NCBI RefSeq assembly: GCF_003018255.1
Contig: NZ_CP027440.1
Length of the DNA stretch: 64,000 nucleotides
Origin: Escherichia coli
Lineage (GTDB): Bacteria; Pseudomonadota; Gammaproteobacteria; Enterobacterales; Enterobacteriaceae
Strand: one strand, 5' to 3'
The first letter of the stretch is position 1; each line of letters begins with the position of its first letter. Of this stretch, positions 20-4,636 are shown in pieces. Made by a program: the position numbers and the translations under genes. A model generated the notes under the pieces. That model saw only the letters and a list, made by a program, of their open reading frames with translations. It did no database searches and was not told the DNA's origin.

Positions 20-658
20 TTACATGAAGAATGGCTTATCGCCATCAGTCCCGGGTTGATTGATTCCTATATTCTCACCAATGTGTTTCTCAGGTTTATC
101 GATGATATCTGTAATTAATGCTGCGACACTCTTACGTGATACGATCGTACCTTTGAATGGTTCATTGCGTGAGGTAAGCTCATAATCAATAATATCTTCA
201 TCAGTCAGCCAGGCAGGGCGAAGAATTGTATATTCCAGTCCAGAAGCCTCAATTGCATCTGCAGCCCTGCGGAATGGTTTTAGGGGTTCACCAATAACTG
301 CATTATTCCATTCGCCAAATTTTCCTGGAACTTCATCATAAATACCGAGGGAAAGAACAAAGATCAGACGTTTAACATCACCGACTTTCATCGCAGCGAT
401 CACTGAATTTGCCTGAATATCTAAATCTTCCCCCGTAAGGTTGGCATACACAACATCCTGTCCCTGCATGGCCTGCTTCAGTGCTGCATGATTCAGTACA
501 TCCCCCATAATAATCTTGCTATTAGTGGGATAGGGTTTGTGGATTTTTGCTGGCTGACGGGCAAATAAAGTTTGTTTAATGGTTTGTTTATCTGCCAGTT
601 GATTAATCACATGGCGGGCTATCTGACCGCCAGCACCAAGAATCAGTACATTTTTCAT
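20..658 (-). CDS. NAD(P)-binding Rossmann-fold oxidoreductase (NmrA/atypical SDR-like), 212 aa; probably the intact counterpart of the K-12 ymjC/ymjD fragments
   Basis: Full-length ORF with N-terminal GAGGQIA glycine-rich dinucleotide-binding motif; lies directly downstream of ycjY on the same strand; K-12 assignment is from memory. Confidence 0.6.
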   Translation of the reverse strand: MKNVLILGAGGQIARHVINQLADKQTIKQTLFARQPAKIHKPYPTNSKIIMGDVLNHAALKQAMQGQDVVYANLTGEDLDIQANSVIAAMKVGDVKRLIFVLSLGIYDEVPGKFGEWNNAVIGEPLKPFRRAADAIEASGLEYTILRPAWLTDEDIIDYELTSRNEPFKGTIVSRKSVAALITDIIDKPEKHIGENIGINQPGTDGDKPFFM

Positions 659-728
659 GAAACTTTTCCCAGATTATTGGCAGCAATATGCCAGGCCATA
701 TCACTATTACGGATTTGAATATGTTTCA

Positions 729-1649
729 TTACAGAGTTTCCTCAAAGAACGGAGCTAATACTGAAATTGCTTCAGCCACATAGACTTTGCCGTCATAAAG
801 ATCCATATGGTTTGCGCCTTCAACAATGTGATAGCGTTTATCCTGGCTTGATGCTCGATCGTACAGGTCGTCACTCATCCATTTGCTCCCTGCCTGGCTG
901 CCCGCCACAATCTGTATCGGCTGAGTCAGGTACACTTCCGCCATATGGTAAGCATCATAGGTAATAATCTGGTTAAGGCTGCGCAAAGTAGCGTAACCCG
1001 GTGCTGTTGGATACTGCGCGCGAGGGGTATGGTAATACTCCCAGGCCTGACGCAGTTCTTCGTTCGGCGCATCGGACTCCTTCATTGGTGCCAGTGGCAT
1101 AGTGGCGTATTCTCTGCTGCTAATATCGCTGGTTCGGGCGTTTGAACCCGCGTCAACGTATGGTAGGGCATCTATAGATTTCACATTGTTTTCCCAACCA
1201 TTACGGAACATCGAACCAATATTGACCGCACTAACAGTACCGATGGCCTTGATGCGGCGATCCTGAATTGCAGCATTGGCTGTATATCCTGCACCGGCAC
1301 AAATTCCCATCGCACCAATTCGGCTATTGTCGACATAAGAAAGCGTTGTCAGGTAATCAATCACGGCACTGACGTCTTCAGTACGAATGTATGGGTTTTC
1401 TAACTGACGCGGCTCGCCGCCGCTTTCACCTTGATAAGATGCGTCATAAGCAATAGTGACAAATCCCTTTTCCGCCAGTTTTTCGGCATAGGTTCCAGCC
1501 GTTTGCTCTTTAACGCCCCCACCTGGGTGAGATACCACAATTGCCGGATACTGACGGGTTTCATCAAATTTTGGAGGGAAATAGATCACTGCAGACAAAG
1601 AGATGGTTGGATTATTGCTGTTAGTGAAGCTGACTTTATTATTCATCAT
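729..1649 (-). CDS. ycjY: alpha/beta-hydrolase (dienelactone hydrolase-like) YcjY
   Basis: ORF 729..1661; start chosen at the second Met pair (MMNNKVSF) which has a GAGGAA Shine-Dalgarno upstream and gives about 306 aa; position upstream of pgrR/mppA matches K-12 order. Confidence 0.75.
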   Translation of the reverse strand: MMNNKVSFTNSNNPTISLSAVIYFPPKFDETRQYPAIVVSHPGGGVKEQTAGTYAEKLAEKGFVTIAYDASYQGESGGEPRQLENPYIRTEDVSAVIDYLTTLSYVDNSRIGAMGICAGAGYTANAAIQDRRIKAIGTVSAVNIGSMFRNGWENNVKSIDALPYVDAGSNARTSDISSREYATMPLAPMKESDAPNEELRQAWEYYHTPRAQYPTAPGYATLRSLNQIITYDAYHMAEVYLTQPIQIVAGSQAGSKWMSDDLYDRASSQDKRYHIVEGANHMDLYDGKVYVAEAISVLAPFFEETL

Positions 1650-1786
1650 TCCGTTCCTCATGGAGTTGTCGGTTCGTTTTGACGGTTGGTGATATCACTA
1701 TAGATATTGATCATTAAGTTGATTAGACCCAAAATCATGATTAGACCTATCATTTAAATGATTAATAGATTGTATGGAGATACTGA

Positions 1787-2686
1787 ATGAAGCGTGAAGA
1801 AATCGCTGATCTGATGGCGTTTGTCGTCGTTGCAGAGGAGCGTAGCTTCACTCGCGCAGCAGCCCGCCTGAGCATGGCGCAGTCAGCTTTAAGCCAGATA
1901 GTGCGCCGTATAGAAGAACGATTGGGATTGCGGCTTCTGACACGAACCACGCGCAGCGTTGTACCCACTGAAGCGGGCGAGCATCTTTTGTCTGTTCTTG
2001 GCCCTATGTTGCATGACATAGATTCTGCCCTGACATCCCTGAGCGATCTGCAGAACCGCCCATCCGGGACAATACGTATTACTACTGTAGAACATGCAGC
2101 AAAAACGATATTGTTACCAGCTATGCGCACATTCCTGAAATCGCATCCTGAAATTGATATCCAGCTTACCATTGATTATGGTTTGACCGATGTCGTTTCT
2201 GAACGTTTTGATGCAGGCGTCCGTCTGGGTGGGGAGATGGATAAAGATATGATCGCCATTCGAATCGGGCCAGATATACCAATGGCTATTGTTGGCTCAC
2301 CGGATTATTTTTCTCGTCGAAGTGCTCCAACCTCAGTGTCACAATTAATAGATCATCAGGCAATTAATTTGTATCTTCCCACATCGGGTACAGCAAATCG
2401 CTGGAGATTAATACGCGGTGGACGTGAAGTTCGTGTTCGCATGGAAGGTCAGCTTTTACTGAATACGATAGACCTGATCATTGATGCTGCAATTGATGGG
2501 CATGGATTGGCGTATCTACCTTATGATCAGGTTGAGCGGGCTATTAAAGAAAAAAAACTGATACGTGTTTTGGATAAATTCACACCAGATTTACCCGGTT
2601 ATCACCTGTACTATCCACACCGTCGACATGCTGGCTCGGCATTCTCATTATTTATAGATAGGCTGAAGTATAAAGGTGCTGTTTAG
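1787..2686 (+). CDS. pgrR: LysR-family transcriptional regulator PgrR (YcjZ)
   Basis: 299 aa ORF with N-terminal LysR HTH (FVVVAEERSFTRAAARLSMAQSALSQ); divergent from ycjY and upstream of mppA. Confidence 0.85.
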   Translation: MKREEIADLMAFVVVAEERSFTRAAARLSMAQSALSQIVRRIEERLGLRLLTRTTRSVVPTEAGEHLLSVLGPMLHDIDSALTSLSDLQNRPSGTIRITTVEHAAKTILLPAMRTFLKSHPEIDIQLTIDYGLTDVVSERFDAGVRLGGEMDKDMIAIRIGPDIPMAIVGSPDYFSRRSAPTSVSQLIDHQAINLYLPTSGTANRWRLIRGGREVRVRMEGQLLLNTIDLIIDAAIDGHGLAYLPYDQVERAIKEKKLIRVLDKFTPDLPGYHLYYPHRRHAGSAFSLFIDRLKYKGAV

Positions 2687-3022
2687 CACTACTTGCTGAT
2701 ACATTAATTTAATTCTTCTCTTAACGTATTCTCAGTTCCTTTCAACGTTTTGGTTATTTTTTATTCTTCGTACAATGGCGACAGATGCTGATTATGATAC
2801 CGAAAACGGGTTTGAACGTGCGAAGCCCGAACGTAGTGTTCGGAGTTCTATGTGCTTTACCGCATTTTGGAGACTATTATTTACACTAAATCTGATTTGA
2901 TATATTGATACTTAAAACATTTGATGCTTCCTTTGTCACTTTTTTGATGGAAGTTGTTTGCATTTCTTTAAGGCGAAACAAATAATTACGCATCAATTTT
3001 AATGTCGGTTAGAGGGAAACTT

Positions 3023-4636
3023 ATGAAGCACTCTGTTTCAGTCACGTGTTGTGCGCTGTTGGTCAGCAGCATTTCTCTTTCGTATGCTGCTGAAGTTCCG
3101 AGCGGCACAGTACTGGCAGAGAAGCAGGAGCTGGTGCGCCACATTAAAGATGAGCCTGCGTCGCTGGATCCCGCTAAAGCCGTGGGCCTGCCAGAGATTC
3201 AGGTCATTCGCGATCTGTTTGAAGGACTGGTGAATCAGAACGAGAAAGGGGAGATTGTCCCCGGCGTTGCGACTCAGTGGAAAAGTAATGACAACCGTAT
3301 CTGGACTTTTACCCTGCGCGATAACGCAAAATGGGCGGATGGCACACCGGTAACGGCGCAAGATTTTGTCTACAGCTGGCAACGTCTGGTGGACCCAAAA
3401 ACATTGTCGCCATTTGCATGGTTTGCCGCGCTGGCGGGAATCAACAACGCACAGGCGATTATTGATGGTAAAGCCGCGCCTGACCAGCTTGGCGTCACCG
3501 CAGTTGATGCCCAAACTTTGAAAATCCAGCTTGATAAACCGTTGCCGTGGTTTGTGAATTTAACCGCTAACTTTGCCTTCTTCCCGGTGCAAAAAGCCAA
3601 CGTAGAAAGCAGTAAAGAGTGGACGAAACCCGGAAATCTGATCGGTAATGGCGCTTATGTTCTTAAAGAGCGCGTAGTCAATGAAAAACTGGTCGTGGTA
3701 CCGAATACCCATTATTGGGATAACGCCAAAACGGTGCTGCAAAAAGTGACCTTCCTGCCAATTAATCAGGAATCCGCAGCCACTAAGCGTTATCTCGCGG
3801 GGGATATTGATATCACCGAATCCTTCCCGAAAAATATGTATCAGAAGCTGTTGAAGGATATTCCGGGGCAGGTTTATACGCCGCCACAGCTCGGGACCTA
3901 TTATTATGCGTTTAACACGCAAAAAGGGCCGACGGCCGATCAGCGTGTTCGCCTGGCATTAAGTATGACGATAGATCGCCGCCTGATGACCGAAAAAGTG
4001 TTGGGAACGGGCGAAAAGCCAGCGTGGCATTTTACACCAGATGTTACTGCAGGATTTACGCCGGAACCTTCGCCGTTTGAACAAATGAGTCAGGAAGAAC
4101 TGAATGCGCAGGCAAAAACTTTGTTGAGCGCAGCTGGTTATGGTCCGCAAAAACCGCTGAAGCTGACGCTTTTGTATAACACTTCAGAAAACCATCAAAA
4201 AATTGCGATTGCTGTAGCATCAATGTGGAAAAAGAACCTTGGCGTAGATGTTAAATTGCAAAATCAGGAATGGAAAACCTATATCGATAGCCGTAACACC
4301 GGCAATTTTGATGTTATCCGAGCCTCGTGGGTAGGGGATTATAATGAACCCTCCACTTTCCTGACATTATTAACGTCAACGCATTCAGGAAATATTTCAC
4401 GCTTTAACAATCCGGTATACGACAAAGTACTGGCCCAGGCATCAACGGAAAATACCGTTAAAGCGCGTAATGCCGATTACAATACGGCAGAAAAAATCCT
4501 CATGGAGCAAGCACCGATTGCACCAATTTATCAATATACCAATGGACGATTAATCAAGCCGTGGCTGAAAGGTTATCCCATTAATAACCCGGAAGATGTG
4601 GCGTACAGTCGGACTATGTATATTGTGAAGCATTGA
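3023..4636 (+). CDS. mppA: periplasmic murein tripeptide-binding protein MppA
   Basis: ORF 3002..4636; start placed at MKHSVSVTCC (signal peptide), giving 537 aa; OppA-family substrate-binding protein. Confidence 0.9.
   Translation: MKHSVSVTCCALLVSSISLSYAAEVPSGTVLAEKQELVRHIKDEPASLDPAKAVGLPEIQVIRDLFEGLVNQNEKGEIVPGVATQWKSNDNRIWTFTLRDNAKWADGTPVTAQDFVYSWQRLVDPKTLSPFAWFAALAGINNAQAIIDGKAAPDQLGVTAVDAQTLKIQLDKPLPWFVNLTANFAFFPVQKANVESSKEWTKPGNLIGNGAYVLKERVVNEKLVVVPNTHYWDNAKTVLQKVTFLPINQESAATKRYLAGDIDITESFPKNMYQKLLKDIPGQVYTPPQLGTYYYAFNTQKGPTADQRVRLALSMTIDRRLMTEKVLGTGEKPAWHFTPDVTAGFTPEPSPFEQMSQEELNAQAKTLLSAAGYGPQKPLKLTLLYNTSENHQKIAIAVASMWKKNLGVDVKLQNQEWKTYIDSRNTGNFDVIRASWVGDYNEPSTFLTLLTSTHSGNISRFNNPVYDKVLAQASTENTVKARNADYNTAEKILMEQAPIAPIYQYTNGRLIKPWLKGYPINNPEDVAYSRTMYIVKH

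Follow-up and report, generated by a model that had tools for sequence, protein, structure and literature searches.

An intact ymjC reductase gene of Escherichia coli and the two deletions that separate the K-12 locus from a pgrR-linked hydrolase-reductase cassette

The reductase gene at the left end of the analyzed window, a stretch of 64,000 nucleotides of Escherichia coli DNA, is the intact form of the gene that K-12 retains only as the ymjC stump. Taken together, the evidence makes it likely that this gene encodes a functional full-length reductase, that it stands last in a PgrR operon residing in a genomic islet and that the window captures an intermediate state in the decay of this operon. 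The gene itself is already known and is not new, because thousands of genome annotations include it, UniProt contains its exact sequence and an orthologue has been crystallised. The features of the locus are compiled in Table 1.

Table 1. Features of the reductase locus, in window coordinates
Feature	Position	Strand	Basis and remarks
SDR gene, intact, 212-aa atypical-SDR / NAD(P)H-binding reductase	20..658	-	Stop codon 20-22, ATG 656-658; ORF list
24-codon ORF MKHIQIRNSDMAWHIAANNLGKVS, ymjD equivalent, hyd2 remnant	655..729	-	Sequence and translation; collinear with O157 hyd2 start
ycjY, alpha/beta hydrolase, first operon gene	729..1649	-	Longest ORF starts 1661; RefSeq ycjY; Pfam DLH, Peptidase_S15, Hydrolase_4
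Divergent ycjY / pgrR promoter region	1650..1786		Promoter-like pgrR site TAGACC-18-TATCAT
pgrR (ycjZ), LysR-family regulator, divergent from operon	1787..2686	+	Pfam HTH_1 and LysR_substrate; RefSeq
Right copy of 37-nt imperfect direct repeat	2929..2965		Bounds islet
mppA	3002-4636	+	ORF list, RefSeq

The SDR protein matches the Pfam family PF13460 (NAD_binding_10) across the entire profile. Residues 8-189 align to profile positions 1-184 of 184 with a score of 181.5 bits, where the cut-off is 27.2 (E 1.9e-53), and weaker Pfam matches are found to NmrA and Epimerase. An NCBIfam scan of the protein yielded no equivalog, and its best matches were far under their cut-offs. RefSeq labels the protein 'SDR family oxidoreductase', and an identical protein in public databases (A0A5N3CXU0_ECOLX) bears the same name. 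The full-length PF13460 match and the ORF list bear out the initial annotation, which had described an intact 212-residue NAD(P)-binding ORF downstream of ycjY.

The family alignments, in which positions are given in the numbering of the window protein, reveal regions of strong conservation. One is the N-terminal segment G8-A-G-G11-Q-I-A14, which together with R34 is invariant in an alignment of 29 sequences and kept in at least 97% of 81 sequences. The protein thereby displays an N-terminal glycine-rich dinucleotide motif and a basic residue after strand beta-2, a combination that would favor NADP. Another is the loop L-G-I-Y-D-E-V-P-G-K-F-G-E-W-N-N (103-118), most of which is likewise at least 97% conserved in the 81 homologues. 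The invariant positions of the 29-sequence alignment that are present in the window protein include G8, A9, G11, R34, the YANL motif and LGIYDEVPGKFGEWNN; indeed, every residue that is invariant among the 29 sequences is the window protein's own residue. At least 97% of the 81 homologues keep G8-A-x-G11-x-I-A, R34, Y71-A-N-L and R147-P-x-W, and the window protein has them all. The 16-residue LGIYDEVPGKFGEWNN motif hardly differs between E. coli, Lactobacillaceae and Bacteroidota.

A search of the window protein for the classical SDR catalytic signature (Ser...Tyr-x3-Lys) found no YxxxK. Of the conserved residues, Tyr107 precedes Lys113 by six positions, and position 129, which is Tyr in 85% of homologues, is occupied by Phe and followed by Ala133 instead of Lys. 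The protein is thus an atypical rather than a classical SDR. Its coding sequence evolves with a dN/dS of 0.04 relative to Pseudocitrobacter and of 0.08-0.19 within E. coli, the latter range resting on just 5-16 substitutions per pair. We considered whether F129, I156 and Q201, which deviate at positions that are at least 85% conserved, are signs of damage and rejected this idea: F129 is common to the whole cassette-bearing proteobacterial clade, and Q201 is shared with Pseudocitrobacter. The GC content of the gene (~42%) is weakly suggestive of a foreign origin and was not relied on.

How does this gene relate to the ymjC and ymjD fragments of K-12? The K-12 lineage, examined for the same full-length gene in the K-12 derivative J53, keeps only the part of the SDR region that corresponds to window positions 520-760, a segment for which PGAP reports, in J53, a partial 'NAD-dependent dehydratase ... 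missing C-terminus'. K-12 thus lacks the full-length gene, whose presence would have refuted the initial annotation. The difference is a 660-bp deletion, which corresponds to positions 3360-4019 of a collinear complete genome (L002) and takes SDR codons 47-212 together with ~160 bp of downstream spacer. MAFFT misplaced the gap, and the breakpoints were instead determined by BLAST and direct inspection. The flanks of the deletion align at 98-99% on both sides, and the first 46 SDR codons are identical between K-12 and the intact allele. The K-12 product, which consists of these 46 residues and 14 read-through residues, is exactly YMJC_ECOLI (60 aa, UniProt). Therefore, the window ORF is intact ymjC, as the initial annotation had supposed. 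A pan-genome study reports an enrichment of 'ymjC' in lactic-acid-resistant isolates (PMC9602453); the gene cluster so named may be either the complete gene or the stump, and the result was therefore not used.

The second K-12 fragment, ymjD, has a different origin. In O157:H7 and LY180, an extra alpha/beta hydrolase gene of ~930 bp, here called hyd2, is located between ycjY and the SDR gene. Hyd2 and YcjY are paralogues with 42% identity. The hyd2 gene, which begins with MKHIQIRNSDMAWHIAAN and whose ATG overlaps the ycjY stop codon, is intact in LY180 and frameshifted in O157:H7. In the window, the 70-nt gap between ycjY and the SDR gene opens with the first 18 codons of hyd2, which are joined directly to the final codons of the same gene. 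The resulting 24-codon ORF overlaps the ycjY stop codon with its ATG (TAATG) and the SDR start codon with its TGA (ATGA). K-12 ymjD encodes YMJD_ECOLI (21 aa), of which 17 of the first 18 residues match the hyd2 N-terminus. Because 18 hyd2 start codons are fused to the last hyd2 codons, ymjD is an in-frame hyd2 deletion scar and not, as had been suggested initially, a fragment of the SDR gene. Together with the scar goes an indel of 12 bp at the start of the SDR gene (MRNI extension, a 216-aa rather than a 212-aa protein).

The window and K-12 share one and the same hyd2 deletion junction. Thus, the window is an intermediate decay state, and the initial description of it as the ancestral two-gene unit does not hold. 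An in-frame deletion of about 0.87 kb removed hyd2 and left the 24-codon ORF as a bridge between ycjY and the reductase gene. K-12 arose from the window state via the second deletion of 660 bp, which left the ymjC stump.

The distribution of these alleles was determined in 5426 complete E. coli genomes. The SDR region is covered to at least 80% in 2894 of the 5426 genomes and hyd2 to at least 80% in 1272, and the hyd2-deletion junction (3948/5426) and the K-12 SDR-deletion junction (2292/5426) are both frequent. Four haplotypes are found: the three-gene type (~23%), the window type with hyd2 lost and the SDR gene kept (~30%, about 1620-1660 of the 5426 genomes), the K-12 type with both deleted (~42%) and a small remainder without the cluster. 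Nissle 1917 is 100% identical to the window over positions 590-780. Additional decay alleles of the SDR gene encode a frameshifted product of 171 aa and a product of 162 aa that is truncated at its N-terminus; at 90% identity, the clusters to which they belong comprise 388 and 332 sequences, respectively. The SDR gene is therefore dispensable, as its deletion in 42% of E. coli genomes and the frequent occurrence of frameshifted or truncated alleles show.

Such a pattern raises the question of whether the window gene is still maintained. The reductase may be functionally orphaned in the window, where hyd2, its most tightly linked partner across phyla, is missing. Carried further, this thought would make the window gene an orphaned relic that drifts to pseudogenisation after the loss of hyd2, with K-12 as the next step. 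The deletion of the partner in the most conserved pairing of the family, the deletion of the SDR gene in 2292 genomes, the additional frameshifted or truncated SDR alleles and the hyd2 frameshift in O157:H7 all fit such a course. We nevertheless regard it as unlikely. The ORF is full-length and has kept every family-invariant residue, its dN/dS is well below 1, and the exact window architecture is retained in ~30% of complete genomes. Furthermore, ycjY, the 42%-identical paralogue of hyd2, is still located upstream and could substitute for it, and Lactobacillaceae keep the SDR gene without any hydrolase. A functional reductase accounts better for these observations.

A functional reductase also requires expression, for which the arrangement of the locus offers a plausible route. 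The initial annotation's suggestion that ycjY and the SDR gene are co-transcribed is plausible from the sequence: the two genes are on the same strand, the 70-nt gap between them is bridged by the small ORF, and a scan for terminator-like sites between them found none. The overlapping TAATG and ATGA codons suggest translational coupling of ycjY, the 24-codon ORF and the SDR gene. Because the 24-codon ORF bridges its neighbors by overlapping codons, the reductase gene is probably still driven by the ycjY promoter and expressed through translational coupling. The Shine-Dalgarno-like GGGA of the SDR gene is rather distant, ~10-13 nt from the ATG. Published work places a PgrR site in the ycjY/pgrR spacer and treats ycjY-ymjDC as one unit (PMC3946193, PMC5934670). 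The pgrR promoter hexamers of the window are listed together with a ycjY-ymjDC promoter (PMC3946193), PgrR binds ycjY/ycjZ in SELEX (PMC5934670), and PgrR is negatively autoregulated (PMC10505187). At the other end of the operon, a 12-bp hairpin followed by AUUUAUU lies just past the SDR stop codon, outside the window (L002 3478-3500); a consensus scanner for terminators does not call it, and the 91-nt stretch that contains it folds with -20.4 kcal/mol (z = -2.5). The hairpin is absent in K-12, where the 660-bp deletion has removed it.

The upstream partner of the reductase in the window, YcjY, is near-identical to the protein in PDB entry 5XB6 'YcjY' (E 1.7e-199 across all 306 residues). Both YcjY and hyd2 match Pfam DLH, and the GxCxG cysteine nucleophile elbow and the C-terminal His are present in at least 95% of 45 aligned YcjY/hyd2 homologues. 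The best NCBIfam match of YcjY is the UilS lactonase, but at 87 bits, where the cut-off is 400, this match is a hint only. Literature searches on 5XB6, 2HDW and PA2218 found nothing relevant.

Is the product of the SDR gene an enzyme at all? The Shigella flexneri orthologue is deposited as an 'NmrA family protein' (PDB 3QVO), the window protein has a partial Pfam NmrA match (E 2.8e-11), and the classical Tyr-x3-Lys pair is absent, all of which would fit a non-catalytic, NmrA-like regulator that senses NAD(P). We consider such a role improbable. The window protein has only 212 residues and its match spans only the first ~100 of the 298 NmrA profile positions, its nearest folds of known function are enzymes, and its gene is found inside operons of enzymes. 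In addition, the extreme conservation of the 16-residue loop suggests a defined substrate site. An enzymatic role thus remains the preferred reading, and the genomic surroundings of the gene in other organisms are consistent with it.

To compare these surroundings, one genome per species was scanned for synteny, followed by tblastn with the neighboring proteins. A LysR gene (pgrR) divergent from ycjY-hyd2-SDR is found in Pseudocitrobacter, whose proteins share 83-93% identity with their E. coli counterparts, and in Afipia, Mesorhizobium and Hyphomicrobium, whose YcjY and PgrR proteins are 82-85% and 71-73% identical, respectively. Across these four genera, and in Citrobacter, Klebsiella and Serratia, the LysR gene in this position is 71-87% identical to pgrR. 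The same arrangement of a LysR gene and ycjY-hyd2-SDR also occurs in Stenotrophomonas, Paraburkholderia, Caballeronia and Achromobacter. The hyd2-SDR pair stands alone in Bacteroidota and in reverse order in Paracoccus, Rhizobium and Shinella, and Lactobacillaceae have the SDR gene alone. In Citrobacter koseri and in contigs of the Klebsiella aerogenes/Salmonella type, the operon is extended by adh_short (a classical SDR) and Oxidored_FMN (an old-yellow-enzyme), whereas no more than the three-gene block is present in Serratia. The Citrobacter, Klebsiella and Serratia blocks are located in variable regions, next to replicase or AlpA genes, CBASS/Pycsar-type genes or an ars operon. In other taxa, the neighbors are of redox or detoxification types and include OYE, Flavodoxin_2, CMD, cupin, metallo-beta-lactamase and nitroreductase genes and HxlR regulators.

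As other genera keep the LysR gene together with ycjY-hyd2-SDR, the ancestral unit comprises at least three structural genes and a regulator rather than two genes. Gene order across genera identifies it as pgrR divergent from ycjY-hyd2-SDR, in which two paralogous Cys-nucleophile hydrolases are followed by the reductase. Given these genera, a derived insertion of hyd2 in the three-gene haplotype of E. coli is unlikely.

In the E. coli lineage, genome comparisons identify the block as an accessory islet of 3-4 kb inserted between mpaA and mppA. The islet is bounded by two imperfect direct repeats of 37 nt that are 86% identical and spaced 3111 apart, the sole direct repeat of at least 18 nt in the 3.8-kb region. 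The left copy is located 146-182 nt beyond window position 1 (L002 3318-3354), and the SDR deletion of K-12 has its left breakpoint directly beside this copy. The window edge is 19 nt past the SDR stop codon, and the next gene in the collinear complete genome is mpaA, ~290 bp further. An empty site with mpaA and mppA adjacent and one repeat copy exists in E. coli strain HS-02. Likewise, mpaA and mppA are adjacent and divergent in Salmonella and Leclercia, with one repeat copy in the spacer. The empty and occupied alleles, the flanking repeats and the empty outgroups thus indicate that the cluster is an islet inserted in the mpaA-mppA spacer. No transposase or integrase was found in the islet, whose contents are only pgrR, ycjY, hyd2 (in some strains) and the SDR gene. 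IS1 copies at the region in two strains are secondary insertions.

The position of the islet bears on a proposed role in peptidoglycan metabolism. The SDR gene sits between mpaA and mppA, the name of PgrR points in the same direction, the PgrR regulon comprises ycjY-ymjDC-mpaA, ycjG and ycjXF-tyrR (PMC5934670), and over-expression of YcjY leads to filamentation (PMC3614548). It could be argued from these data that the reductase works in murein-tripeptide recycling together with mpaA, ycjG and mppA, a role that we judge very improbable. The cluster is an insertion, and Salmonella, Leclercia and HS-02 have mpaA and mppA without it. The ~30 loci elsewhere that have a hydrolase partner are unrelated, variable sites beside redox or detoxification genes; mpaA was searched for in these genome loci and was absent, mppA was not seen in the annotated neighborhoods, and neither gene ever lies beside the block in the Citrobacter koseri, Klebsiella aerogenes/Salmonella-type and Serratia loci. 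Moreover, it is not obvious why peptide recycling would call for an NADPH reductase. As for the refuted reading in which ycjY and the SDR gene form an ancestral two-gene unit and ymjC and ymjD are both SDR fragments, the adjacency of the two genes on one strand and the derivation of ymjC from the N-terminal 46 SDR codons agree with it, but the match of ymjD to the hyd2 N-terminus, the three-gene arrangement in 1272 E. coli genomes as well as in numerous further genera and phyla, and the hyd2 deletion scar inside the window itself dispose of it, both for ymjD and for the term 'ancestral'.

The architecture of the intact locus further offers a possible explanation for the link between PgrR and mpaA. 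The name 'peptidoglycan recycling regulator' presumably goes back to the 'ycjY-ymjD-ymjC-mpaA operon' of K-12. Where the SDR gene is intact, as in the strain of the window, the hairpin follows the SDR stop codon and ~290 bp separate it from mpaA. In K-12, the deletion has eliminated the hairpin and brought the PgrR-controlled transcript within ~126 bp of mpaA. The removal of the hairpin could therefore permit K-12-specific read-through into mpaA. We tentatively raise the possibility that the PgrR-mpaA link is a K-12-specific read-through by-product of the 660-bp deletion and that the cassette is a horizontally acquired, detoxifying hydrolase/reductase unit whose native effector and substrate are unrelated to murein, although we would place this idea below even chances.

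Annotation pipelines already mark the K-12 copy as truncated, and the value added by the present analysis consists only of corrections to the K-12-centred view of the locus. K-12 ymjC and ymjD are the scars of two separate genes, and the K-12 reference represents the most decayed of the four haplotypes. PgrR is part of an imported cassette that is found outside Proteobacteria too, and the K-12 'ycjY-ymjDC-mpaA operon' may exist solely through a deletion. These corrections matter when the PgrR regulon or a 'peptidoglycan' role of YcjY is carried over from K-12 to pathogenic or probiotic strains. What results is a well-defined, widely conserved hydrolase-hydrolase-reductase module.

What reaction might the reductase of this module catalyze? 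The AF2 model of the window protein (pLDDT 88) superposes on the Shigella flexneri orthologue (PDB 3QVO), which is 98% identical across all 212 residues, at a TMq of 0.88. The few substitutions between the two are K48Q, V69I, VG92-93AC and G114V. The 3QVO entry, a structural genomics deposition, is named 'Rossmann-fold NAD(P)-binding family protein' / NmrA family protein without an assigned function. A distant homologue of the same subfamily is the Veillonella parvula SDR (PDB 3R6D, 4HNG and 4HNH; E 3e-19, 29-30% identity, TMq 0.88-0.89), whose structure was, according to the title of 4HNH, solved as an NADP complex. The Veillonella structures (3R6D/4HNH) are likewise structural genomics entries with no function attached, and a literature search found no functional paper for 3QVO or 3R6D/4HNH.

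The glycine motif and Arg34 of the reductase would bind NADPH. Based on the fold analogues and the neighboring genes, from which alone the substrate class is derived, we infer that the protein is an NADPH-dependent, BLVRB-like reductase under LysR control that acts with the esterases on an electrophilic compound of the ester, lactone or quinone type. Within a module serving detoxification or catabolism, the reductase would work downstream of or beside the esterases, which resemble dienelactone hydrolase. A similar logic is seen in the chlorocatechol pathway, where dienelactone hydrolase, a Cys-nucleophile alpha/beta hydrolase (GxCxG, DLH), is followed by NAD(P)H reduction by maleylacetate reductase, with a LysR regulator. 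This likeness is one of logic only: no catechol-pathway genes are found near the SDR gene, and maleylacetate reductases are a different protein family.

Beyond 3QVO and the Veillonella protein, the proteins of known function that Foldseek places closest in fold are BLVRB (TMq 0.78-0.79) and ChuY (TMq 0.81), both with a probability of 1.00. Human BLVRB (biliverdin-IXbeta / flavin reductase, 1HDO) and E. coli ChuY (anaerobilin reductase, 5FFQ / 5GUY) share the single-domain fold of ~205-215 residues with the window protein at 19-20% sequence identity (E 6e-6 to 8e-5). The LGIYDEVPGKFGEWNN motif is specific to the reductase's own family and distinguishes it from BLVRB and ChuY, and, unlike ChuY, the reductase has no haem-utilisation context around it. 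BLVRB and ChuY are NADPH-dependent reductases that work without the classical SDR Tyr/Lys pair. By analogy with these two enzymes, the reductase probably passes hydride directly from NADPH to its substrate, which would be conjugated or electrophilic, for instance a quinone, a flavin, an enone or a compound derived from a lactone.

The hyd2 gene, which encodes a second alpha/beta hydrolase between ycjY and the SDR reductase gene in three-gene strains, is intact in strain LY180 and other non-O157 strains, and in O157:H7 it is frameshifted by a one-base length difference. The O157:H7 frameshift is a third, independent route to the loss of hyd2. The islet, the pgrR-ycjY-hyd2-SDR block between mpaA and mppA, is also interrupted by IS1A in two strains: 181.1 (NZ_CP059907.1) carries it in the SDR/ycjY region, and COL60J (NZ_CP092244.1) carries it within hyd2. 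These two insertions are additional independent islet disruptions.

Both hydrolases carry Cys rather than Ser in the nucleophile elbow, as GICAG in YcjY and as GVCGG in LY180 Hyd2. Because no acidic residue is conserved from this Cys to the conserved His in YcjY and Hyd2, the sequences suggest that the two enzymes would use a Cys-His dyad or an acid in an unusual place.

The start of the SDR gene differs between the window and O157:H7 by a 12-bp indel that is flanked by direct ATGA repeats. In three-gene strains and other Enterobacteriaceae, a start four codons earlier is possible and would yield a 216-aa protein (MRNI...); the window encodes the 212-aa form. The window protein belongs to a 2510-member cluster whose representative, P0002, carries N6K and has lost the invariant Gly11: its dinucleotide-binding motif reads GAGDQIA, with Asp at that position. 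The Gly11 replacement could inactivate the protein, or it could reflect a sequencing error, P0002 being encoded on a contig of 1.2 kb.

In some strains, the islet also contains an annotated epoxyqueuosine reductase (QueH) gene fragment of 75-93 bp, possibly carried over from DNA that flanked the cluster in the donor.

Coordinates of islet features and of related loci
Feature	Position	Location	Basis
SDR start indel	window 656-672; O157:H7 (L003) 4140-4180		
ycjY	window 729-1649		
hyd2, frameshifted	O157:H7 L003 4179-5109; L086 4886-5816		
hyd2, intact	LY180 (L084) 2518-3408		
QueH fragment	window ~2784-2876; L084 5505-5597; L003 7164-7238	between pgrR and right direct repeat	PGAP; window position derived by offset from L084 and L003
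Five-gene cassette and anti-phage-type genes	L089-L091 9000-11000		
Regulator/NmrA pair, Salmonella	L093 1148-3101	far side of mppA	
Regulator/NmrA pair, Leclercia	L094 1053-2924	far side of mppA	

In the Klebsiella aerogenes/Salmonella-type contigs, the five-gene cassette, which adds classical SDR and old-yellow-enzyme genes to the three-gene block, adjoins anti-phage-type genes (AGS_C/SMODS, PycTM and SLATT_6) that differ between otherwise identical flanks, and the cassette therefore lies beside a defence-island hotspot. Near the mpaA-mppA locus, beyond mppA, Salmonella and Leclercia each harbor a different regulator gene, of the LysR type in Salmonella and of the HTH_31/MLTR_LBD type in Leclercia; facing away from it is a gene that encodes an NmrA/NAD_binding_10 protein of ~300 aa. 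The two genes form an unrelated pair of similar apparent function.
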